From an uncultured Pirellulales bacterium (lineage in GTDB: Bacteria > Planctomycetota > Phycisphaerae > Sedimentisphaerales > Anaerobacaceae), in the NCBI GenBank assembly GCA_964514115.1, contig CAZEPI010000011.1, positions 7,443-71,442 on the forward strand: a stretch of DNA of 64,000 nt, read 5' to 3'. This document shows, in pieces, positions 2,933 to 15,738 of this stretch; position 1 is the first letter of the stretch; every line of letters begins with the position of its first letter. The notes beneath the pieces are model-generated. The model saw nothing but the letters and a program-made list of their open reading frames with translations. It was not told the DNA's origin and did no database searches. Both the position numbers and the translations under genes were made by a program.

Positions 2933-4264
2933 CTATTTTACGAGGAGGGGGGCGGCGCGAGCGGCGACGAGCTGGCAGGGGAGACAATAATCGGCCACCT
3001 TTTTGCCCGGCGGGAAGGTTATCTGCTCGTAGGCCGTCAGGTGACCTTCCGCCTGGTGATAGGCAATATGTCCATACAGACTGAGCAGAAAATCGTTCCT
3101 GCGGCCAAGAGACCACAGTGCATAGAGATACTCGGCCAGAGGCCAGTCGTCCAGATGGTCGATAAAGCGGGTCATTCCACAGAACTGCCCCCCTGCGGAG
3201 AGGCGTGCGGCAACTACCCTTTCGGCCATGTCTTTAGGCAGGAGACCGCTCGAGAGCAATTCGGGCCAGTAGCGATAATTAGTGTAGGATGCCTCGAGTG
3301 TTCTGGTGAGGGACGTCGGTGGTCGCAGAGGTTCGATTCGCGGAGGCAGCCACCAGGCAGAGGGGTCGTCCGGCCAGGTCTTGCGGATGGCGCCAAGAGT
3401 ATCCTGAGCCAGTGCCGCAGCGACTTTGCGAATAGCGGGCGGCGACGTCGCAGGAGCAGCCGAGAGACGTTCACACAAATCCGCCCATCGCTGAAGACCT
3501 TTTGCCGCCCATGCGTTGTTGTGGAAATATTTGCCTGTGTCTTCTCTGGTATCAGCTTCAGGCACTCCGGAGATGAGACCGTCATCTTTGACTGCATCAG
3601 CGTGGAGCTGCAGAAGGTATTCGCAAATGCGGTCAAGCTGCTTAAAGCCATCCTGCCACCAAATCGCCGTGCCGGCCCTTTCCTCCAGCAGCGCCGCCGT
3701 ATGAAGCATCTGGCCGTATTCACTGATGGATGGGCCGTAGTATTTGAACGTTCCATCTTCACCGACGAAGTTCGAGAGCCAGTAATGAAATAGCTGGGCC
3801 GCACGGGTGTTCAGGCCCCAGGCCGACAGCGCATCTACCGCGGCGATTATCGTGGGTGGGAAGCCGTCATGGGCATCATCTGCGTAGTTACCTACGCCGT
3901 ACTTGGGATGGTCGCCCTGGAATGTTGCGTCGATATGTGCAAGTCCCGTCTTGACCGACAAGTCCAGGAAAGGATGGCCCGTGTCAACCGGCGGGTCTGT
4001 TTGAAGTCTTTTGATGTTCTCGGCTATTTGGGCCGGATCAAAGGCGGGTGACCCGGTAGTGCGAGGGAACAAACCAAGTACTTTATCAAGATCAGGTTGT
4101 CCTGAAATCATATTGCGAACGGGGTCTTCTCGCGCCGCTATCCATTGTGCTTTTGGTTTTTCCTCGAGTGCAGCGAATAAAGCCAAAGGTGCAACTATGG
4201 TTGCTGCCGAAATCGCGGTGCTTCGCTTGATGAAATCACGTCGCGTCATAGTGGAGTTTGTCAT
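2933..4264 (-). CDS. Tat-exported protein of unknown function (possible alpha/alpha-barrel glycosidase-like)
   Basis: Twin-arginine signal MTRRDFIKRSTAISAATIVAPLALFAA. The segment YFHNNAWAAKGLQRWADL resembles FWFANNAYAWLGLKSTAEAF in the 1137-aa protein (37354..40767). The fold assignment is a guess. Confidence 0.6.
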   Translation of the reverse strand: MTNSTMTRRDFIKRSTAISAATIVAPLALFAALEEKPKAQWIAAREDPVRNMISGQPDLDKVLGLFPRTTGSPAFDPAQIAENIKRLQTDPPVDTGHPFLDLSVKTGLAHIDATFQGDHPKYGVGNYADDAHDGFPPTIIAAVDALSAWGLNTRAAQLFHYWLSNFVGEDGTFKYYGPSISEYGQMLHTAALLEERAGTAIWWQDGFKQLDRICEYLLQLHADAVKDDGLISGVPEADTREDTGKYFHNNAWAAKGLQRWADLCERLSAAPATSPPAIRKVAAALAQDTLGAIRKTWPDDPSAWWLPPRIEPLRPPTSLTRTLEASYTNYRYWPELLSSGLLPKDMAERVVAARLSAGGQFCGMTRFIDHLDDWPLAEYLYALWSLGRRNDFLLSLYGHIAYHQAEGHLTAYEQITFPPGKKVADYCLPCQLVAARAAPLLVK

Positions 4265-4666: not shown

Positions 4667-5605
4667 GTGAAGCCGACATTGCTCATCATAGCCGCGGGAA
4701 TGGGAAGCCGGTACGGCGGGCTAAAGCAGATTGCCTCGGTCGGGCCGAACGGCGAGATGCTCATCGAGTATTCCGTCTATGACGCAATAAAAGTCGGCTT
4801 CGGCAAGGTCGTCTTCGTCATTCGCCACTACTTTGAAGAGGCCTTCAAGAAGAGTATCGGCAGTAACCTTGACGGGCTCGTTGAAACGGCGTACGCCTAC
4901 CAGGAGCTCGACACCTGCCTTGAGCAGTTCCCTCTGTCCGGGGACCGGGAAAAACCCTGGGGCACCGGGCATGCGGTTTTGATTGCGAAGGACCTGATTG
5001 GTGAGCCGTTCGCAGTGATTAACGCCGACGACTATTACGGGCGTGGTTCATTCGAGCTAATTGCTAATCAGCTCTGTTCCAGCGCCGAGTCCGGAGCGAA
5101 CGACTATTCAATGGTTGGTTATACGCTGCGCGACACGCTGAGTGAGCACGGGCACGTAGCGCGAGGCGTCTGCCGGTGCGACGAACAGATGTACTTGGCC
5201 GGTGTCGTCGAGATGAGTAAGATTGAGAGAGTCGCCGACGGTATTCGCTATTTCGACGAGCACGGCAGAAGATGCAGTTTGACCGGCGACGAAGCGGTCT
5301 CGATGAACTTCTGGGGCTTTAAGCCCTCCATCTTCGGGCATCTCGATAGGCAGTTCCGCGAATTCCTAAAGCAATCCGGCAGCGACCCGAACGCGGAATT
5401 CTATATCCCAATGGTAGTTGATAATCTGATACGGACAGGTCAGGCCCGTGTGAAAGTGCTCGCGACAAATGAGCCGTGGTTCGGGATCACGTATCGCAGG
5501 GATAGAGATATTGCGGCGGCCAGCATTAAACAAATGATAGGGGCCGGCCTCTACCCCGAAAAACTCTGGCAGAACACTGGTAATTGCCCGCAAGAAAAGG
5601 TATAA
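4667..5605 (+). CDS. sugar-phosphate nucleotidyltransferase family protein
   Basis: The N-terminus LLIIAAGMGSRYGGLKQ matches the G-x-G-t-R-x nucleotidyltransferase loop. The ORF is 312 aa with a GTG start. Confidence 0.75.
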   Translation: MKPTLLIIAAGMGSRYGGLKQIASVGPNGEMLIEYSVYDAIKVGFGKVVFVIRHYFEEAFKKSIGSNLDGLVETAYAYQELDTCLEQFPLSGDREKPWGTGHAVLIAKDLIGEPFAVINADDYYGRGSFELIANQLCSSAESGANDYSMVGYTLRDTLSEHGHVARGVCRCDEQMYLAGVVEMSKIERVADGIRYFDEHGRRCSLTGDEAVSMNFWGFKPSIFGHLDRQFREFLKQSGSDPNAEFYIPMVVDNLIRTGQARVKVLATNEPWFGITYRRDRDIAAASIKQMIGAGLYPEKLWQNTGNCPQEKV

Positions 5606-5672: not shown

Positions 5673-6021
5673 GGGGGCGAATGGCTTCGACCGGATGTCG
5701 GACGGTCAAGCTGCATGCCCAGGATGCCGGTTGGCCTGGCTAATCATCCGGCACACGATTAATTGGCAACTACCAGTTGCGAATGGCTGCTTAATTAGCA
5801 GCCCGTCCTTTCAGGCAGTGTCTGCGGGCCTGAGATGGGCGTCAGATAGCGGGCTGCGCTGCGCGGTTTTTCGGGCTGGGTGGCTAAGACAAATCCCGAA
5901 ATAGCCGAGCCGGCGGCCTGTCGCCTGGCGGTCGGTAAGGCGAATTGTAATAAAGCGACTAAGCATGTAGAGGCTTGTCTTGAAGCATCACGGGACGGGG
6001 GTTCGAATCCCCCCGCCTCCA
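5673..6021 (+). ncRNA. ssrA: tmRNA (SsrA), 349 nt, CCA not encoded
   Basis: 5' GGGGGCG (5673-5679) pairs with CGCCTCC (6014-6020) and includes the G3:U alanine identity pair. The T-arm is GGGGG-TTCGAAT-CCCCC (5997-6013). The conserved ACTAAGCATGTAG box is at 5958-5970. The candidate tag frame GGC AAC TAC CAG TTG CGA ATG GCT GCT TAA (5765-5794) has its stop in a hairpin loop (GCTGC-TTAATTA-GCAGC). Confidence 0.93.
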
Positions 6022-6170: not shown

Positions 6171-6232
6171 GGTTCGCCCGCCTCCGGCGGGTAAACCCGC
6201 CTATGGCGGGTAAAAATCCCCCCGCCTCCATT
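6171..6232 (+). repeat. att-like duplicates of the tmRNA 3' end plus two tandem 19-nt hairpin units
   Basis: 6215-6232 (AATCCCCCCGCCTCCATT) is an exact 18-nt copy of tmRNA 6006-6023. 6171-6185 (GGTTCGCCCGCCTCC) equals tmRNA 6000-6020 minus 6 nt. CCCGCC-NNN-GGCGGG-TAAA occurs twice (6177-6195 and 6196-6214). Confidence 0.7.
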
Positions 6233-8266: not shown

Positions 8267-10039
8267 TTACTGCCCTTTCACACTCATCCTGAGGCGGTAC
8301 AACGAGTTCTCAGCCGTTATGAAGAGCGTGTCGTTATTGCTCCCACCGAAGCAGACATTTGCGGTCCAGCCGGCCGGCACTGCAATCTGCTCAATCTTAT
8401 TGCCGTCCGAATCAAATACCGTCACGCCGGCTCCGGTCAGGTACACATTGCCCCTTTCATCCAATGTCACTCCATCAGAGCCCATTGAGGCGAACAGCTT
8501 CTTATCGGAAAGTGTCCCGTCGTCGTTTACCGTGTAAGCGTATGTTTTCCGGCCTCCCTGGTCGGCGACGTAAAGCGTCTTGCCATCAGCGGTCCCAATT
8601 ACACCATTGGGTCTGACCATATCGTCGATCACGCACAGAAGCTCACCACCTTGCGGCGGCAGGTAAAAAACATATTCGCCCGCCAGCTCCATATCGTCTC
8701 GCTTCTGGCCGTACCTCGGGTCCGTAAAATAAATGCCGCCCTTCGCATCGCGCCAAAGGTCATTCGGGCTGTTGAGCTTTTTGCCCTTATAGTTGTCGGC
8801 AAGAACGGTCACGTTTCCCTGCGGGTCAATCTTCACAATTCGCCGATTGCCTCCCTCACATACATAGAGATTTCCCTCGGCGTCGAAGCACAGCCCGTTC
8901 GCGCCGCCCGAATTCTCGCGGAAGGTTGACAGGGCTCCACTAATCGACCAGACGTGAATCCGATTGTTGGGTATGTCGGTGAAATATACATTGCCTTTGG
9001 CGTCTGCTGCAGGTCCTTCGGTGAACGCGAAACCGTCGGTTAGCTTCTCAACTTCTGCACCGGGTGCTATCAGCGACTTGGTATGCGGCGGGACCCAGGC
9101 GGCGCCTTTAGTGTTTGTCTTGATTGCGTACAAGGCGTCCGAGGCGGTGATGAAAAGCGTGTCGAAGTTTGCGCCGCCGAAGCACACATTCGCCGTCCAT
9201 CGCTCATCGATTTCAATGTGGTCGATTTGCTTTCCATCCTTATCGAATACCGTTACGCCCCTGCCTGTCAGATAGATATTGCCCCGGTCGTCGATTGTCA
9301 TACCATCCGAGCCCATTTCACAGAACAGCTTCTTGTTCGAGAGCGTGCCGTCTTCGTTTATGGTGTAAACGTACGTTTTACCTGCTCGAATATCGGCGAC
9401 GTAGAGCAGCTTGCCGTCGGGTGTTCCGATTATTCCGTTCGGCTGCTCGAGGTCCTCGGTGACTCGAATAACCGTCTGGCGGTCCGGTTTGAGGTAGTAA
9501 ACGTGCTGGCCGTCCTGCTCCATCTCACCTCGGTCCCAGTAGTCGCGCTTGTAGAACGGGTCGGTGAAATATATGCCGCCCTTCGGGTCCCGCCACAAGT
9601 CGTTCGGTGCGTTTAGCTTCTTTCCTTTGTAGCTGTCAACCAGCACAGTCATCTTTCCGTTTTTGTCGAACGAGACGAGCTTGTTGTATAAATCTGCACA
9701 CGCCAGGAGGGAGCCGTCCGCGTCGAAATACAGTCCGTTCGACCGCTCGCATCCGTCGAGGAAGACAGACAGTTTTCCGTCGGTTGACCATAGGTAAATC
9801 TTGTCGTTCGGCTGGTCCGTAAAATAGACATTGCCTTCTGAATCTGCCGCCGGCCCTTCGGTGAATGTGAAGACCTCGGCTAACTTCTCGACCTCTGCGC
9901 CCGAAGCGACGACCGCGTGTTCGTGTTTGGCAGGTGGCTCACCTTCGGCTGGGCTGTCTTGCGATGCGGGTGACATACAGCAGACCACGCCCAATACCCC
10001 TGCCAGAAACAAACGCAAACCAAATCCTGAAGTCCTCAT
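8267..10039 (-). CDS. tandem-duplicated SMP-30/gluconolactonase/LRE-like beta-propeller protein
   Basis: Two homologous halves begin GAEVEKLAEVFTFTEGPAADSEGNVYFTD and GAEVEKLTDGFAFTEGPAADAKGNVYFTD. Both contain KGKKLN[AS]PNDLWRD.KGGIYFTDP. The start is placed at ATG 10039 (MRTSGFGLRLFLAGVLGVVCC signal) rather than at 10123. Confidence 0.85.
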   Translation of the reverse strand: MRTSGFGLRLFLAGVLGVVCCMSPASQDSPAEGEPPAKHEHAVVASGAEVEKLAEVFTFTEGPAADSEGNVYFTDQPNDKIYLWSTDGKLSVFLDGCERSNGLYFDADGSLLACADLYNKLVSFDKNGKMTVLVDSYKGKKLNAPNDLWRDPKGGIYFTDPFYKRDYWDRGEMEQDGQHVYYLKPDRQTVIRVTEDLEQPNGIIGTPDGKLLYVADIRAGKTYVYTINEDGTLSNKKLFCEMGSDGMTIDDRGNIYLTGRGVTVFDKDGKQIDHIEIDERWTANVCFGGANFDTLFITASDALYAIKTNTKGAAWVPPHTKSLIAPGAEVEKLTDGFAFTEGPAADAKGNVYFTDIPNNRIHVWSISGALSTFRENSGGANGLCFDAEGNLYVCEGGNRRIVKIDPQGNVTVLADNYKGKKLNSPNDLWRDAKGGIYFTDPRYGQKRDDMELAGEYVFYLPPQGGELLCVIDDMVRPNGVIGTADGKTLYVADQGGRKTYAYTVNDDGTLSDKKLFASMGSDGVTLDERGNVYLTGAGVTVFDSDGNKIEQIAVPAGWTANVCFGGSNNDTLFITAENSLYRLRMSVKGQ

Positions 10040-10168
10040 TTTCTTACCCCTTTTTATAGACCATTTGGACCGAAACCTTCTCAGGAACACGATACCGTCG
10101 ATGCCCCGCGCAGTAAAGCGCAAAGGCCGGACCAGAATAGTAGGAATTGGGACTCGTTCGGCTCGATG

Positions 10169-12646
10169 TTACTGTTCCTGTTTCAACGGCCTTTTTCTCG
10201 CCCCCGGCGTTTCAAGAGGCGGCAGTCTTTTCTTAATTCCTGGAGCGGTTTTGGAGGCCGGCAGGTCCCGGCGCACTTCGTCGATGGATTTGACGTTGCC
10301 CCGGGCCTCGCGCTGCTCGGCCGGGCTGCCAAGGCCGATTACTACAGGGATATCAGCCCCCTCGCCCCGAGATGCTTCGGAGTAAGTCATGCTCAGGTAA
10401 ACATCCAGCTCAACCCCGTCGTCTGGATTAACCAGCACATCGCTGCCGAAATAAGCGGCGAATATGCCGGAATAATCATAGTCGAACAGAAACTCCTGCT
10501 GTTGCGTGTTGCTGTTCCATCGATACCCAACTATTCTGTCGACGTACGGCTCGATAATTATTGCGAGTGTCCCGCCGGGTATGCCGTAGCTGTCATACAG
10601 ATAAGTATCGACAAAATGATAATCATCGGCATACCAGAAACCAATTTCGACAATGGTCGGGGCGCTCGGCGGAGCTAGGTACGACGTGGTGATATACTCG
10701 CTGTTTATGTAGAGGTCGAACTCATCATCCACCTCTTCGCCGGCGTCCCACAGGGTTATTGTGCACCAGATGTAATTAGTCAATTTGAAGGCGTAAGGGT
10801 CGCTTGTATTGCCGTCCACCGTAACAGTTGTGTCAGTCCAGAAGTAATCAACATCATCCGCATCGAAGAACGGCAGCTCTACCGTCAGCCATGTCCCGTT
10901 GACGTCGGCGCTGAGCACGTTGCCATAGACATCCGGATAGACGCCGTTGACATCCTCAAAACGCACCACATTCTCAGCCGGTGTAGCCGAAAAACCCGAA
11001 CCTTCAATCAGCAGCACCGAGCCGGGGCAGCCCATCTCAGGCGTTATGCCGGCGATGGATGGCGGCGGTTCAGGCGGTGCGAATGTGTCAACGGCCATGG
11101 CGTTTGGGTCGTCGGCGTCCGGCTGAGCGGGGTTAGCGTTAATTTGGCCTTTATAGACCAAAATATATTTGCTTATCTGGTGTCCCTGTGACGGGGTCGG
11201 CTTGGTGAATTGCCCCGTTACGGATTGTCCATAGCCGAGTGTGCTCGCCGGATTCCATCCGGGGACGGTAAATCCGGCCACCTGCGCTCTGGCGCCTTCT
11301 TCATCGTCCCGGTAAAGCTCGAATGAGCCGCCTTTTAACGTTTGCGGTACGCCCGAGTTATTCGAGTCGTTGGTGATAGTAAGCTCTATCTGGTTACAAT
11401 CCGGGCTAACGCAGCTCGGCTCAACAGATAACCGCCCGCGGAAAAAGTAGTTCAACAGGCCCGTCGCGTGGTCGATGGTTCGCGGGATAGTTATATCGGC
11501 ATAGTCTTCAAATACATTCACATCGTCCGTAGTAATCGTGCTGTCGATTACAGGAACGTAGGTATAACCAAAGCCGGCCGCTACATAGCGGGTGTATGAA
11601 TCACGCGCAAGATGCGATACTCCATAGTTTGAGCCGTTGAAGAACGTTTTATTGCCTTCTTTTTGTATTGTTGTGTGGTCCTCAGCCGGGTGGGGAAACT
11701 GGTATTTGACGCCGGAGCAGCCGAAGACCGTGCTAAACGATAGAAACTGATAATTCGTGCATTCGGATAGTCCCCACAGACCTTCCGGCGGGGTAATCCC
11801 GTCACCGAGATAACCGCCCGTATATACATTTGCATCGAAATACTTTGCCAATTTGTCGAAGACAACAGGCCCGGCCCCCAACCAGGAACACTGCCCGTTG
11901 CTGTCTTCAACCTGCTCCTCAACCCAACCCTCAAAGGGATTGCCGTAATTATGCCAAGATCGATAATGGCCGAAAAGAAAGTCATTTCTCGCGTGAGCAG
12001 GGACACCCAAATCCTCTACAAGATGGATAACCTGCCCGAGATCAACAAATGCAATAGCCATGCACGCTTCTCGATAACTCTGGCTACTCGATATTAACCC
12101 AAGATAGAATCCCTGTCTTGCATAATCCCAAGTTTGTTCGTTGATCGTCGGTTCTTTTTGCGCAATTCCTTGTATTGCCCAAGTTAGACTTGATGTCCCT
12201 GTGAAATCGAAGCCGCTCCAACTTGAAGCATATAATCTCCATTCTGGGTGGTCTGTTTGATTATCTAATCCGGAATTCCTTATCGGATCGTGGAAATGAT
12301 GCCGTGGTCGAATTGGTTTCCATCTACCATCCTCATCTTCAATTGTACTCCCGGCCCCTAACCAATCCAACACACTCCTGGTCGTTATCTCAGGATTAGC
12401 CTGACCTTTCGAAAGCCGTTCTCTTACATCCTCGGGAAAATCCCAGTGGAGTTGAGTGCTAAGTCCCTGACTAAAACCGAGCTGTGTTTTTAAATAATTG
12501 TCTATTTGAGCCGCGTCGCTATTGCCTGCCCTTTTTGTTATTGCGGGATGAGTCGACTTGTTTCCCCAGGCGTATGAATCTTCGATCGAACCCATGAGAA
12601 CAACCAAAAAGAGCAAAGTGTAAATAATTGATTTTTTCATCTCCAT
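10169..12646 (-). CDS. secreted zinc phospholipase C / P1-nuclease-fold protein with IPT/TIG-like domain and long unknown C-terminal region
   Basis: The signal peptide ends SYA|WGNKSTHPAI, giving a mature N-terminal Trp followed by His as in PLC/P1. Other motifs: RPRHHFHDP and HLVEDLGVPAH (H-x3-D-x5-H spacing, as in the P1/PLC metal site). An IPT/TIG-like segment reads GSVLLIEGSGFSATPAENVVRFE. The 5' third is lower in GC than the 3' part. Confidence 0.7.
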   Translation of the reverse strand: MEMKKSIIYTLLFLVVLMGSIEDSYAWGNKSTHPAITKRAGNSDAAQIDNYLKTQLGFSQGLSTQLHWDFPEDVRERLSKGQANPEITTRSVLDWLGAGSTIEDEDGRWKPIRPRHHFHDPIRNSGLDNQTDHPEWRLYASSWSGFDFTGTSSLTWAIQGIAQKEPTINEQTWDYARQGFYLGLISSSQSYREACMAIAFVDLGQVIHLVEDLGVPAHARNDFLFGHYRSWHNYGNPFEGWVEEQVEDSNGQCSWLGAGPVVFDKLAKYFDANVYTGGYLGDGITPPEGLWGLSECTNYQFLSFSTVFGCSGVKYQFPHPAEDHTTIQKEGNKTFFNGSNYGVSHLARDSYTRYVAAGFGYTYVPVIDSTITTDDVNVFEDYADITIPRTIDHATGLLNYFFRGRLSVEPSCVSPDCNQIELTITNDSNNSGVPQTLKGGSFELYRDDEEGARAQVAGFTVPGWNPASTLGYGQSVTGQFTKPTPSQGHQISKYILVYKGQINANPAQPDADDPNAMAVDTFAPPEPPPSIAGITPEMGCPGSVLLIEGSGFSATPAENVVRFEDVNGVYPDVYGNVLSADVNGTWLTVELPFFDADDVDYFWTDTTVTVDGNTSDPYAFKLTNYIWCTITLWDAGEEVDDEFDLYINSEYITTSYLAPPSAPTIVEIGFWYADDYHFVDTYLYDSYGIPGGTLAIIIEPYVDRIVGYRWNSNTQQQEFLFDYDYSGIFAAYFGSDVLVNPDDGVELDVYLSMTYSEASRGEGADIPVVIGLGSPAEQREARGNVKSIDEVRRDLPASKTAPGIKKRLPPLETPGARKRPLKQEQ

Positions 12647-12686
12647 GATTCCTCAATAACAAGCTTAATTAAACCAAGAATTTCAA

Positions 12687-13055
12687 CTACGCCATCATAT
12701 GATGCCACATATTTATTAAGTAAATATCCGTCATAACCACAGCAGATAAAACAAGAATCAATAACGTTAATATTATTTTGGCCACCCTACCCCCAACAGG
12801 CAATATACTCATAATCATTATCCATAATAAATCACATCCCAATATTACAATGTGGGGCATTAGTTCTGAATCAAACATGTAAACCAAGTACCTGTGAGGG
12901 TAATTGTATTCGGTGCGTATCACAAGAAAGCACAATGCCAGATACAATATCGGGGCTGCTATTACCATAAGCAGGATTTGCCAACGATGCAGTCTTTGTT
13001 GCTCTTTCTTGCTGTCCATTGCTTTACTCCTAATATTCTTGCTCAAAAGTTGCAT
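12687..13055 (-). CDS. small polytopic membrane protein, unknown function
   Basis: 122 aa with about 3 hydrophobic helices. Very AT-rich: 60-nt lines at 12661 and 12721 counted by hand at 30% and 27% GC. Its start overlaps the stop of 13043..13954 by 13 nt. Confidence 0.5.
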   Translation of the reverse strand: MQLLSKNIRSKAMDSKKEQQRLHRWQILLMVIAAPILYLALCFLVIRTEYNYPHRYLVYMFDSELMPHIVILGCDLLWIMIMSILPVGGRVAKIILTLLILVLSAVVMTDIYLINMWHHMMA

Positions 13056-13954
13056 GTCCTCGAGTCTTTGTCGCCGCCTCTTGCAGAAATAACAGGGAAA
13101 CTATAAATTACAGTAGTATATTGCTGAGTTGTCTCGCAAATCACCCCATCTTCAACCTGCTCCTCAACCCAATCCTCGAATCGGTTGCCCCAATCCTTCC
13201 ATATTTTTGGTCCTGTTGATTTCATATGACCATATACAAAGTCGTTCCTCGTATGGGCAGGCACGCCCATATCCTCAAGCAGATGAACCGTATGTCCTAA
13301 TGATATAAATGCAAGTGCAAGATAGTGTTCTCTCTCTGCAGGGTTTGATTTGGTCAAAGACCTGTAGAAGTAAACCTTTGTATCCGGCCAGGCGAAGTAG
13401 TTTTCATATTCTGTCTCCCACACAGCGCCCTCTGTCCCTAATGCTCTTTTTTGTGCCGATGCGCCGGTCAAGTCGAAATGAAGCTTATATTTTCTCCACG
13501 TATACCAATCAACAACTACTGCCCAGTTCGGATGGTCTGTCTTATTATCCAAACCGGCATTTGGATTTGGCGGCGAAACACCCGGATTTGCTATTGGCGC
13601 ATGAAAATGATGTCTTGCCCTTGGAACAGGGACATCTTCGAGGTTTGCTCCTGCCTTCAGGAAATCCAAGATTGCGCAGGGGTTGGCTGGCAACTCCGGG
13701 TTAATTCTGGTTTCAAACTGTTCCGTTGGAATCCTTTCTGGTGCTGGAACAACCGACTGGTCTAACAGTAACATTACCCCCAAGCCCTGATTAAGCCCGA
13801 GTTCGTTCTTCAGAAACGAATCTGCGTATGAGTCTTGGGCTGCCTTTTCAGAAATCGCCTTATGGGTCTTGTTTGCAAACCCCTTCGCAACAGAACAAAG
13901 GCCCGACAACGTCATAGTAATTGTAATCAATGAAATGATTGGATTTATTTTCAT
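13043..13954 (-). CDS. short paralog of the PLC/P1-nuclease-fold catalytic domain (secreted)
   Basis: Signal peptide, then FANKTHKAI. Motifs RARHHFHAP and HLLEDMGVPAHTRNDF. Homology to 10169..12646 ends right after WVEEQVED, followed by a short unrelated tail. Confidence 0.65.
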   Translation of the reverse strand: MKINPIISLITITMTLSGLCSVAKGFANKTHKAISEKAAQDSYADSFLKNELGLNQGLGVMLLLDQSVVPAPERIPTEQFETRINPELPANPCAILDFLKAGANLEDVPVPRARHHFHAPIANPGVSPPNPNAGLDNKTDHPNWAVVVDWYTWRKYKLHFDLTGASAQKRALGTEGAVWETEYENYFAWPDTKVYFYRSLTKSNPAEREHYLALAFISLGHTVHLLEDMGVPAHTRNDFVYGHMKSTGPKIWKDWGNRFEDWVEEQVEDGVICETTQQYTTVIYSFPVISARGGDKDSRTCNF

Positions 13955-13965
13955 TGCTCAACCTC

Positions 13966-14280
13966 CTAAGGGGTTAAATGTGAGATAAAATATATGCCAG
14001 CTAACCATATTAAGTCATATACGAGCATTAATATAGAACACGCTATGACAAATACCCGTACTACTCGGGTGTAAGGTTTCCATAATATGGTCAGCGTTAA
14101 TGAGGCATCCAAAAAAATAATTGCAGGCAACCAGCCCCAGCGAGTCAATCCAATATCAAATAGAAATCCAGCGAAAGAACCTTCGTGCAAAAAATCAAAC
14201 AACAAAGATAGGGCGTTTATTATTATCGCTCCCCACAAAAGAATTGAAACTACTGTCCGCTTGCTTCTTTCCGAAGGCAT
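13966..14280 (-). CDS. small 3-TM membrane protein (paralog of 14314..14613)
   Basis: Shares RWGWLPA / YWGWVPA, WKPY / WKPW and FISHLTP / FISQLGP with its neighbour. AT-rich. Confidence 0.55.
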   Translation of the reverse strand: MPSERSKRTVVSILLWGAIIINALSLLFDFLHEGSFAGFLFDIGLTRWGWLPAIIFLDASLTLTILWKPYTRVVRVFVIACSILMLVYDLIWLAGIYFISHLTP

Positions 14281-14313
14281 AAATATATTCTCCTTGAACC
14301 GATGCTAAATCTC

Positions 14314-14613
14314 CTAAGGGCCCAATTGTGAAATAAAAAAGAAAATAAACCAAAAGCCCGCAAACATTAACGATATTATTAAAAGAAACAAAATGACTCC
14401 GCGGAGTGTTTCATTCCATGGTTTCCAGCATAATGCGCCTGCTATAGCAGCTAAAGGCAGAATAAATGCAGGAACCCAACCCCAATAAGATACCTGAATT
14501 CTCTCCAGTATTGCGTCAAGAGATCTGAGCGGCAATACTACTATCATGTCTAATACAAGTGAAATCAAGGCCAAGGTTAGAACTGTTATCTTCTTTTTTC
14601 TTTCGGGAAGCAT
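14314..14613 (-). CDS. small 3-TM membrane protein (paralog of 13966..14280)
   Basis: Carries the same conserved motifs as 13966..14280, in tandem arrangement 33 nt apart. Confidence 0.55.
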   Translation of the reverse strand: MLPERKKKITVLTLALISLVLDMIVVLPLRSLDAILERIQVSYWGWVPAFILPLAAIAGALCWKPWNETLRGVILFLLIISLMFAGFWFIFFFISQLGP

Positions 14614-14652
14614 TGTTTATTCTCTCCCTGAAATTGATTTCTCGCGGCATCG

Positions 14653-15738
14653 CTAAAAATTAAGAAGCCGCCAGTTTCCGTCTTCATCTCTTATGAAGAA
14701 GACGGGGAAGCTATAAGTCTCGCTGCCGTCCTGATGGAGCATTTCGTATATAACTTCGCCATTCCTTTGCCGCTCGAACGTCAGCGCGCCCATACCTGCT
14801 GCGAAATCGGGAAGGTTGGGCTCAATTATCGCGAAAATCTCGTCGTATTTTTCCCTCGAAATCTCCGTGACATAAGTAAGGGCCTCGTTCACATCACCAG
14901 CCGTCAGGGCCGTCTTGAACATCCCGAAGACATCCACCGGATGCGGGCCGTTCAGCCAGAAATAAGCAAAGATTTCCAAATCGTTGATGTCAACCGCTCC
15001 GCTGTCGTCGAAATCGCCGCCAAGACCGCTGCCTGACTCTCGCCAGTTACCGGCGAACAAAGCAAAATCAGCAAAGTTCACTATAGCATCGCCGTTTAAG
15101 TTGGGATAAAAATCAGGCTCCGGAAAGCCGTCAAGCCCGCTTGCTCTGCCGCCAGAGCCGGCTGCAAGATAATCCTTCTCAGGGCCGCTGTCCTGTGAAA
15201 CGAAAATCTTCTGTTCTGTCTGTGGCGGACTCGGCGGTCGGCTGAGGACCTCAAAGTTTATCCCGATTACGGTAGTAATGTCCGTATCGGCGCAATAAAA
15301 CAGAACCAGCTTATAGACGCTTGACCCCGCCGATACAACCGTCCCGTCGATAACCATATCCCGCACAGCTACTAACATTATCTCACCGACATGCGGGTCC
15401 GGGCCAAACAAGAACCGATACGCCGGCACCGGTTCATCGACAGAGCTATTCGGCTCAGCCAATAGCTCAAGCACTCCTTCGCCTTCACATACTACCGAAT
15501 AGGTCTGCTCGTTTACTTCAGCCCCAGCCACCCTTATTATAAGCTCGTCTTCGCCCTGTATTATGAGCGGCTCTGCCGCACTAAGACCGTTGACCGTCAA
15601 TATCGGCGTTGCACCATCGGCTGCCCGTGTCCCTGCCGACGACACCGTCATCATAAGGATTAAACGAATGCTAACCACCAACAGTGATATGGAAGCCGAT
15701 TTCTTGTCCATTATCCACCTCTCGTGTGAAAAGTCCAT
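14653..15738 (-). CDS. secreted/anchored protein with dockerin-like EF-hand repeats and a C-terminal NTF2-like region
   Basis: N-terminal hydrophobic anchor. Dockerin-type repeats NLNGDAIVNFADFALFAGNW and GDFDDSGAVDINDLEIFAYFW. The C-terminal fold is a guess. Confidence 0.6.
   Translation of the reverse strand: MDFSHERWIMDKKSASISLLVVSIRLILMMTVSSAGTRAADGATPILTVNGLSAAEPLIIQGEDELIIRVAGAEVNEQTYSVVCEGEGVLELLAEPNSSVDEPVPAYRFLFGPDPHVGEIMLVAVRDMVIDGTVVSAGSSVYKLVLFYCADTDITTVIGINFEVLSRPPSPPQTEQKIFVSQDSGPEKDYLAAGSGGRASGLDGFPEPDFYPNLNGDAIVNFADFALFAGNWRESGSGLGGDFDDSGAVDINDLEIFAYFWLNGPHPVDVFGMFKTALTAGDVNEALTYVTEISREKYDEIFAIIEPNLPDFAAGMGALTFERQRNGEVIYEMLHQDGSETYSFPVFFIRDEDGNWRLLNF

Follow-up and report, generated by a model that had tools for sequence, protein, structure and literature searches.

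Duplicated D-M-E modules in an uncultured planctomycete link predicted tri-zinc phospholipase C-like enzymes to NTF2-type and small membrane partners

The 64,000-nucleotide window analysed here (contig CAZEPI010000011.1 of assembly GCA_964514115.1, positions 7,443 to 71,442, from an uncultured planctomycete placed in the Sedimentisphaerales) contains six closely packed minus-strand genes at positions 10169 to 15738. Together they represent a conserved, self-contained module of three genes, here in two copies that have become fused, in which an exported adaptor protein (D) is followed by a small membrane protein (M) and then by an exported enzyme (E). Judged by their conserved residues, the E proteins form a branch of the tri-zinc phospholipase C (PLC) superfamily that is both new and highly divergent, nearer to PLC than to P1 nuclease, with a putative catalytic activity and substrate. 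The superfamily itself is already known, and the three-component module appears to be undescribed. The M proteins are best interpreted as protecting the producing cell from the cognate enzyme, in the manner of immunity proteins, or as escorting that enzyme, in preference to anchoring it; we assign this reading a probability of roughly 0.4.

The cassette begins with D361 (14653..15738), an adaptor of 361 amino acids (aa). It is followed by two small proteins assigned by hydropathy to the membrane, M99 (14314..14613; 99 aa, three spans, M104-type family) and its paralogue M104 (13966..14280; 104 aa, two to three spans). The next open reading frame (ORF), E303 (13043..13954; 303 aa), is chimeric, and its paralogy and predicted ligands mark it as an enzyme of catalytic-domain-only type. 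M110 (12687..13019; three spans by hydropathy, M122-type family) then precedes the full-length exported enzyme, E825 (10169..12646; 825 aa). The gaps between the longest ORFs, all on the minus strand, are 40, 11, 33 and 39 nucleotides (nt), with one 13-nt overlap. Hence the tight packing noted in a preliminary description of this DNA, made from the sequence alone, stands with its coordinates. The overlap is probably an artefact of choosing the longest ORF, which extends M110 to 122 aa (12687-13055, minus strand); gene callers and the family alignment place its start at ATG 13019, giving 110 aa and a 23-nt gap. E825 and E303 are paralogous over their first ~270 residues (38% identity over 272 aa, E 4e-48), as are M104 and M99 (29% identity, E 6e-9), both relationships having been correctly spotted at the outset. 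By hydropathy, D361, E303 and E825 each have one N-terminal hydrophobic segment, and every small protein has two to three peaks or membrane spans. After this segment both enzymes have a small residue that precedes W or F, agreeing with the signal peptides originally proposed. The identical cassette was found on six contigs from several samples in a sequence database search, and the window corresponds to part of the 436-kb JGI metagenome contig Ga0309839_1000011, of Sedimentisphaerales type. The models of Pfam, NCBIfam and PADLOC recognised none of the six proteins apart from a weak TIG match in E825, and a promoter and terminator scan returned nothing better than chance.

This gene order is common to the relatives of these enzymes. 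A family-alignment scan, taking one genome per species, yielded 62 loci, with several genomes carrying three copies, and a jackhmmer analysis of all ORFs in these loci recovered the same-strand order of D, then M, then E. Dozens of bacteria from sediments carry the module. Where upstream sequence was adequate, 48 of 49 planctomycete-type E genes had a membrane-protein gene directly upstream: M122-type in 27 cases, M104-type in 12, a third family (X) in five, and another polytopic protein in four, with nothing in the remaining one. In 47 of these 49 cases a D gene was located no more than 6 kb upstream, again in the same orientation. Clustering of all flanking ORFs revealed no family besides D, M and E that was broadly associated with the loci. 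Hence the small genes are conserved and sit almost always beside such enzymes, as the preliminary description had suggested should be checked. Many of the metagenome-assembled genomes (MAGs) involved, including those of loci L007, L008, L011 and L012 and others with CAY* or CAZ* accessions, are recorded as "uncultured Pirellulales" or "Planctomycetaceae"; their better-annotated relatives all belong to the Sedimentisphaerales or Phycisphaerae, and the labels may be coarse automatic assignments.

The identity of the membrane protein also tracks that of the enzyme. Classifying each E by whether its catalytic domain is nearer to E825 or E303, and each M by the family of the gene immediately upstream, E825-like enzymes were paired with M122-type proteins in 26 cases and E303-like enzymes with M104-type proteins in 10, leaving a single exception (36/37; Fisher exact p = 3e-8, from cases that are phylogenetically non-independent). 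Even N-terminal fragments of E genes, encoding 60-170 aa, are each still preceded by an M gene. E enzymes are not stand-alone proteins: in at least six phyla or candidate groups they have a partner of NTF2 type, and those of Sedimentisphaerales additionally have fast-evolving small membrane proteins specific to each enzyme subtype. No description of the module's composition, its cognate pairing or its spread across phyla was found in the domain libraries or literature searched, in agreement with the initial impression that no such system had been described.

The two principal M families share a plan, in which a short basic N-terminus precedes three spans, without being demonstrably homologous: jackhmmer did not link them, and the 72% probability given by hhalign is affected by transmembrane composition bias. 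The M104-type family comprises 17 non-redundant ORFs (25 jackhmmer matches in all) with the motifs ML.E.KK, WGW, WK and W..FIS, and M104 itself is 60-68% identical to the counterparts that precede E303-like enzymes in L008, L009, L019 and L069. The M122-type family, to which M110 belongs, comprises 34 ORFs with the motifs MQEKKRK, P..WF, GFD..WI..MKL.P.K and LSA. A word-index search with M110 found only four relatives, too few for a profile, and it is just 24-34% identical to its counterparts, at loci where D proteins share 44-61% and E825 homologues 43-55% identity. These comparisons indicate that M diverges faster than either E or D. The X proteins, which fill the M slot before E in some Planctomycetes, Desulfobacteraceae and Bacteriovoracaceae, combine a transmembrane or lipobox anchor with a CarboxypepD_reg-like beta-sandwich (TG.PIEGA.V; E 1.7e-5 against PF13620, below the Pfam threshold) and a tail rich in lysine and glutamate. 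Domain comparison identified members at L035 5159-5755, L036 1769-2371, L052 1337-1918, and L058 7321-7944 and 8686-9330. The same comparison revealed fusions of X to a polytopic N-terminal module in L010 (7099-8013) and L038 (7048-8007), and to an NTF2 domain in L039 (4594-6039), an arrangement that would suggest functional linkage between the partners.

Were the small ORFs non-functional, the large enzyme would be the only real gene, and the packing would reflect chance or decayed sequence. Some observations point in this direction: the small proteins match no known family in Pfam or NCBIfam, M110 has very few database relatives, and the locus carries at least one rearrangement scar. Yet both M families (34 and 17 members) have kept intact ORFs of the same three-span design across dozens of loci; they always occupy the same position on the same strand; they co-vary with the enzyme subfamily; and the M genes are identical on six independent contigs. 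This explanation is almost certainly wrong.

The enzymatic assignment was examined using an alignment of 36 diverse N-terminal domains, including representatives from Nitrospirae, Desulfobacteraceae, Bacteriovoracaceae, Patescibacteria and one gammaproteobacterium. In E825 numbering, H33, G99, E103, D104, R113, H117, G204, H208 and D212 are invariant, as are G214, V215, P216, H218, R220, N221 and D222, and H227 and E239 are kept in at least 90% of sequences. The motifs HHFH.P and HL(V/L)ED(L/M)GVPAH, singled out initially in the two window enzymes, are thus invariant or nearly so across the family. In nearly all members the signal peptide is followed directly by W, F or Y, the predicted mature N-terminus; E303 would begin F-A-N-K-T-H, and it retains all conserved ligand positions. 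The zinc ligands of Bacillus cereus PC-PLC are W1, H14, D55, H69, H118, D122, H128, H142 and E146. The corresponding candidates in E825 are the N-terminus at W27, together with H33, D104, H117, H208, D212, H218, H227 and E239, so that the family appears to have the full set of nine ligands characteristic of the PLC/P1 superfamily, with altered spacing of H227 and E239. Alignment maps seven of the nine onto PC-PLC, and the aromatic N-terminus and H33 are conserved without being placed on PLC counterparts.

Direct comparisons point to the same relative. A phmmer search of the Protein Data Bank (PDB) with E825 matched PC-PLC (1ah7) over the H-x3-D-x5-H region (E 0.002), although E303 alone found nothing, and the profile of the 36 members matched only PC-PLC of B. 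cereus (E 0.017-0.05). In the profile alignment, H208, D212 and H218 correspond to H118, D122 and H128, E239 to E146, and HHFyDP to SHFYDP, which contains H69. With hhalign, using reference sequences verified as identical to 1ah7 and 1ak0, the family profile matched the PC-PLC sequence at 88% probability (E 2.9e-6). The Pfam model Zn_dep_PLPC (PF00882) matched five of the 36 members, at best with E 2.7e-4, and matched neither E825 nor E303 at E < 0.1, so that the family-model threshold was not reached.

The same ligand logic would accommodate an S1/P1-type extracellular nuclease, acting on single-stranded DNA or RNA in the sediment rather than on lipids. In P1 (1ak0) the ligands W1 and H6 are closely spaced, and the distance from the aromatic residue to the first histidine in E825 (W+6) and E303 (F+5) resembles this arrangement, as does the H-x3-D-x5-H core, which aligns to P1 residues 111-128. 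However, that core alignment lies within an hhalign match of only 1% probability, against 88% for PC-PLC. The S1-P1_nuclease (PF02265) model matched none of the 36 members, nor did the Het-C model, whereas Zn_dep_PLPC matched five; and the PDB profile search yielded PC-PLC alone, with no nuclease match. In addition, a nuclease active only outside the cytoplasm would have little need of membrane-embedded partners. A nuclease is therefore improbable, and of the original placement within a joint PLC and S1/P1 superfamily, the PLC half is supported by the hhalign probability, the E of 0.002 and the ligands, and the P1 half is weak.

The catalytic part of E825 (aa 27-250; 11897..12568, minus strand) is delimited by the invariant columns, the PC-PLC alignment and the AlphaFold model (pLDDT 77), in which residues 30-250 are entirely helical. 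It is followed by a family-specific region ending in a first beta-sandwich at 404-522 (aa 251-522 in all; 11081..11896, minus strand; defined from homologues, alignment and model). The motifs WGLSE.TNYQFLS and TIPRTIDYATGL.NYFFRGRL occur here, and the region is common to all long planctomycete members; within it, residues 250-400 were modelled with less confidence. The variable C-terminal part (10172..11062, minus strand), recognised from the weak Pfam TIG match, the model and Ig-like Foldseek matches, contains a TIG/IPT-like domain and two beta-sandwiches (aa 529-751), followed by a disordered charged tail (756-825). Overall, the model has three or four beta-sandwich domains between 404 and 751. 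Searched against the PDB as a whole, it drew only Ig- and TIG-like matches through these C-terminal domains, leaving the catalytic domain unrepresented. Hence a PLC fold for the N-terminal domain is suggested by sequence and predicted secondary structure rather than by structural superposition.

The 188 homologues of E825 in a large protein database derive, where a source is named, from Sedimentisphaerales, Phycisphaerae or Planctomycetes. They share the N-terminal ~520 residues and vary at the C-terminus, with TIG in the closest relatives and RCC1 repeats in place of the TIG/IPT part in many of the other paralogues. The wider family is far larger: a full HMMER scan with E303 reached 1,986 clusters, represented at 50% identity, at E <= 1e-3, and 335 at E <= 1e-10, and the distant clusters likewise have no recognised catalytic Pfam domain. 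This work therefore brings to light a large family of likely zinc phosphodiesterases, of about 2,000 clusters at 50% identity, that is invisible to current domain databases. In Patescibacteria of the candidate phyla radiation, the catalytic domain also forms the N-terminal part of giant proteins, 1,400 and 1,700 aa long (L059 7839-12068 and L062 4219-9342), and it is present too in P0272, a protein of 3,315 aa. The patescibacterial proteins could bear on how lipid-auxotrophic episymbionts attack or harvest host membranes.

The partner D361 has a more elaborate architecture than the dockerin-like character first attributed to it. A signal peptide or anchor helix occupies aa 4-33 and an Ig-like beta-sandwich aa 46-161; beyond a disordered linker (169-208) come a pair of dockerin-like calcium-binding repeats (~210-262) and a C-terminal NTF2-like cone (267-359; ~95 aa). 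In the repeats, two D.(N/D).(D/S)G..(V/I)(N/D)..D(F/L) segments have columns nearly invariant in the D family, and PF00404 (Dockerin_1) matches four D361 homologues, although D361 itself has no Pfam match. The Ig-like and NTF2-like domains had been overlooked. For the latter, a Foldseek search with the AlphaFold model (pLDDT 74) gave top matches that were uniformly NTF2-like (3b7c at E 4.5e-3; 3f40, 2rfr, 6xj6 and KSI), with target-normalised TM-scores of 0.42-0.56 over ~105-135 columns, the E-values being weak and the fold uniform; the model thus indicates an NTF2-like fold. This domain is the part of D that stays linked to E outside the Planctomycetes. In Patescibacteria and one gammaproteobacterium it forms a protein of 155-190 aa, anchored in the membrane at its N-terminus, whose gene lies immediately upstream of E. 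Since its conserved residues are structural only, the domain is suggested to be a binding module, and not an enzyme. Hence the preliminary description missed an integral and evolutionarily older partner of these enzymes, just as it missed that the cassette consists of two units fused by deletion.

The fusion is recorded in E303. Residues 264-303 and the stop codon (13043..13165, minus strand) represent the 3' remnant of a D-type, NTF2-encoding gene, on both protein and DNA alignment to D361: the protein alignment with D361 322-361 is gapless, with 16 of 40 residues identical (E 6e-6), and both end NF-stop. Hence the enzyme-like assignment of this protein holds for its catalytic part and not for its last 40 residues, and these alignments show that in E303 a catalytic domain has been joined to what was the 3' end of another D gene, a deletion scar linking two D-M-E units. 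M110 and E825 follow the D-derived tail just as M99 follows D361. Accounting for the tail in this way also supports ATG 13019 as the M110 start, with the 13-nt overlap as a probable artefact. No other short E gene that was checked carries a D-derived tail, making the scar specific to this locus.

The position of the scar is informative. The similarity of E303 switches just after the motif GN.FE.WVEEQVED, and the DNA encoding this junction (GNPFEGWVEEQVED; 11904..11956 in E825, minus strand, repeat D1, with its partner at 13149-13201 in E303) shows the highest identity between the two genes, at 81% over 53 nt and 88% over 41 nt. It is therefore a candidate recombination point. The closely related locus L069 contains an array, D-M-M-E373-M-e225-M-E, with an unfused 373-aa version of the E303-like enzyme. 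There, the short and final E genes have ~30-50% protein identity before the junction, with DNA similarity limited to one 38-nt patch; past it, DNA identity is 92%, and successive protein windows are identical at 28/30, 30/30 and 19/19 positions. L015 has a similar block. Five short or fragmentary E genes stop just past WGLSECTNYQFLS. Taken together, these alignments indicate that arrays rearrange often, partly at a conserved junction, with short and fragmentary E genes among the products.

Base composition tells a different story from that first proposed. The local AT-richness is real: guanine-cytosine (GC) content is 0.33-0.49 at 12.45-14.55 kb against ~0.54 for the window, and GC at third codon positions (GC3) is 0.37-0.47 in M99, M104, E303, M110 and the N-terminal half of E825, against 0.646 +/- 0.053 in 21 other long ORFs. 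From this had come the view that the cassette is a horizontal island, recently acquired by this genome and marked by its AT content. The deficit itself would fit such an origin, as would a tmRNA gene and a DDE transposase gene 4-8 kb away. However, in 28 other loci with adequate flanks, where host GC ranges from 0.41 to 0.53, M genes are AT-richer than their flanks in 28 of 28, by a mean of 0.113 or ~11 points. The N-terminal domain of E follows in 25 of 28 (mean -0.050), and the C-terminal parts do not (+0.015). The compositional break accordingly lies inside E genes, the M and catalytic block being AT-rich (window 12000-14700; L008-L051) and the C-terminal domains not. In the window, D361 and the C-terminal half of E825 similarly have near-normal GC3 (0.58 and 0.63). 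Hence the dip is a property of the M and catalytic-domain block everywhere, regardless of genome composition, and, being common to the family, gives no reason to suppose that the cassette reached this genome recently. The cassette shows no host-specific deviation in composition, nor insertion landmarks, as no tRNA, integrase or direct border repeat was found in its flanks, and the family has expanded into multiple copies across the Sedimentisphaerales lineage. A recent island is therefore distinctly improbable, and the block's AT-richness could possibly stem from selection acting on expression, or from exchanges inside a gene pool of lower GC.

The tmRNA gene lies at 5673-6021 on the plus strand, with the tag peptide GNYQLRMAA. 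A copy of the ssrA 3' end at 6213-6230 (16/18 positions) is the only such copy; it lies 190 nt downstream of ssrA itself, does not enclose the cassette, and may be what is left of the attachment site of an element since excised or decayed. The transposase gene (DDE_Tnp_1, E 1.6e-20) is at 1764-2756 on the minus strand, ~7.4 kb from the end of the cassette, and the neighbouring ORFs at 848-1705, 2933-4264 and 4667-5605 belong to no Pfam family. Immediately downstream of the cassette lies a minus-strand gene (8267-10123) for a secreted protein in which two SMP-30/gluconolactonase/LRE-like (SGL) beta-propeller domains stand in tandem. Genes for a DUF362 protein with a TAT signal and for a DUF72 protein come next, and none of the three neighbours recurs beside the cassette in other genomes.

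From these components a mechanism can be proposed. E would be a Sec-exported metallo-phosphodiesterase, cleaved by signal peptidase directly before an aromatic residue, whose free N-terminus would join H33, D104, H117, H208, D212, H218, H227 and E239 in a three-zinc site. Residue 1 of both PC-PLC and P1 contributes its free alpha-amino group as a zinc ligand. With the cut predicted directly before the aromatic residue that would serve this purpose, E would become active only once outside the cytoplasm. Bacillus and Listeria PLC enzymes carry a propeptide that delays activation; E, unlike them, appears to lack one, leaving nothing to delay its own. A membrane-active enzyme emerging on the outside of the producer's own cytoplasmic membrane would need handling, for which the cognate, co-translated and fast-evolving M is the natural candidate. 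M, a small polytopic protein of that membrane translated just before its cognate E, may bind the enzyme there as soon as it has been exported, keeping it harmless to the producer's lipids, passing it on for secretion, or both. The NTF2-like domain of D may likewise bind E, with the dockerin-like repeats tethering or targeting the complex. Recombination, in part at the junction past the catalytic core, would both extend and erode the arrays, with E303 as one product.

As to the route of export, genes resembling those of type II secretion systems (T2SS) or type IV pilins adjoin D-M-E cassettes in about seven loci: L017 (6769-8633), L028 (3525-7000 and 10785-15234) and L023 (10080-17544), and also L034, L038, L043 and L045. 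Among the products of these sets are proteins with N_methyl prepilin motifs, one resembling T2SS-I, and one of 884 aa that contains an HHH_3 motif and might, at a guess, be GspK-like. In L017 and L028 the cassette stands among pseudopilin-like genes on the same strand. Such neighbours hint at an export route for E; the window itself contains no prepilin motifs.

The protective or escort role of M is ranked first because three features of the module resemble toxin-immunity systems: cognate specificity, non-homologous replacement within one slot, and the stacking of truncated modules. The linkage and co-variation found in such systems are both present: 48 of 49 E genes have a membrane-protein gene as their immediate upstream neighbour, and the subfamilies match in 36 of 37 pairs. 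The main rival is a nutrient-harvesting complex at the surface or in the periplasm of a sediment heterotroph, in which E would cut phosphodiesters from the environment (the head groups of phospholipids, for example, or further organic phosphates), D would tether it in cellulosome style, and M would be an anchor or assembly factor, with no antagonism involved. This account fits the variable binding domains and the dockerin, the several Sedimentisphaerales paralogues with variable C-terminal modules (TIG, RCC1 and PD40) following the pattern of secreted hydrolases. It also suits the carbohydrate-related genes elsewhere in the window, for example CBM_4_9 and GH172/DUF2961. Similarly, no delivery apparatus or trafficking domain (type V, VI or VII secretion system, Rhs, PVC or colicin-type) was found in the six proteins or their window neighbours. 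Nevertheless, the pairing is left unexplained: nutrient harvesting gives no reason for each enzyme subfamily to have its own fast-evolving membrane family, for even enzyme fragments to keep an M gene, or for non-homologous membrane proteins to swap within a single slot. Furthermore, an inner-membrane anchor could not hold an enzyme acting outside a diderm cell. Overall, this rival seems somewhat unlikely.

A bolder version of the protective reading, drawn by analogy, is that D-M-E could be an undescribed, multi-phylum antagonistic system. A Sec- and T2SS-exported tri-zinc lipid phosphodiesterase would attack the membranes of foreign cells, with M, X or membrane-anchored NTF2 proteins as immunity partners. 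Cassettes of a catalytic domain plus immunity gene would be exchanged at the conserved junction, in a mirror image of C-terminal polymorphic toxins, and the system would be used by predatory Bacteriovoracaceae, and by episymbiotic Patescibacteria on their hosts. In this full form the proposal is unlikely. If the partners are immunity proteins, they would define a new class of interbacterial weapon in abundant uncultured sediment, predatory and episymbiotic lineages; if they are anchors, they would define a new enzyme-display architecture.

Multiple observations count against a protective or escort role for M, or against the biochemical premise on which it builds. With regard to the enzyme, H227 and E239 are spaced unlike H142 and E146 of PLC; the window proteins have no Pfam or NCBIfam match, and the PDB E-values are marginal (0.002-0.05); the Foldseek comparison of E825 gave no PLC match; and activity, substrate, toxicity and any physical contact between D, M and E are conjectural. 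With regard to the module, an immunity gene upstream of its toxin gene would be an unusual order; the pairing statistic is inflated by shared ancestry; and the junction signature is clear in two of ~9 multi-E loci (L069 and L015), the others lacking it. With regard to function, the window has no dedicated secretion apparatus, and pseudopilin clusters adjoin the cassette in only the ~7 loci listed above. Members outside the Planctomycetes often have no polytopic M, meaning protection by this route would not be universal, and a variable TIG or RCC1 C-terminus with a dockerin partner is equally typical of secreted nutrient-harvesting enzymes.

The classical PF00882 enzymes, such as B. cereus PC-PLC (1ah7), Clostridium perfringens alpha-toxin and Listeria PlcB, have a Sec-exported, all-helical catalytic domain with an aromatic mature N-terminus, as is predicted for E. 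The H-x3-D-x5-H core, the histidine of HF(Y/H)DP and the acidic ligands all align, and alpha-toxin, like the model of E825, has a beta-sandwich after the catalytic domain. Conversely, E lies beyond the reach of the Pfam model, and its catalytic domain is larger, with family-specific inserts. It has an invariant R-N-D after the core, a respaced final histidine and glutamate, no propeptide, and long TIG or RCC1 C-terminal extensions. Its gene is also always accompanied by NTF2-type and membrane-protein partner genes. To our knowledge, no classical PLC has partners of either kind, and, as none is known to need them, the module suggests that an exported enzyme active on membranes may be controlled, escorted or neutralised in a new manner. 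S1/P1 nucleases (PF02265; 1ak0) and Het-C have the tri-metal ligand logic and the helical fold predicted for E; however, profile similarity to P1 is negligible, and Het-C has the pattern HxxxDxxxH in place of H-x3-D-x5-H. Divergent branches of the superfamily such as Het-C do exist, and serve as toxins (Zhang et al. 2012, PMC3482391).

Cellulosome-type display offers a parallel for D, which likewise has a two-loop calcium-binding dockerin-like module in a host that is a polymer degrader. In contrast to cellulosomes, the dockerin-like part is on the non-catalytic partner rather than on the enzyme, and no cohesin was identified. The remaining comparison is with bacteriocin and effector-immunity systems: the immunity proteins of pore-forming colicins, colicin M with Cmi, Tle phospholipases with Tli, and the Imm-NTF2 proteins of polymorphic toxins. 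D-M-E differs from these in having no T5, T6, T7, Rhs or colicin-type delivery domain, and in an exported, dockerin-bearing D, with toxicity and protection here attributed by analogy. Relative to the usual toxin layout it is a mirror image, with the catalytic domain N-terminal and the partner gene upstream. What is shared is the tight linkage of a small gene to that of a potentially membrane-damaging enzyme, family-to-family cognate specificity with fast divergence of the partner, non-homologous replacement within a slot, and stacked, truncated "orphan" modules. Moreover, the NTF2 fold is a known immunity scaffold.

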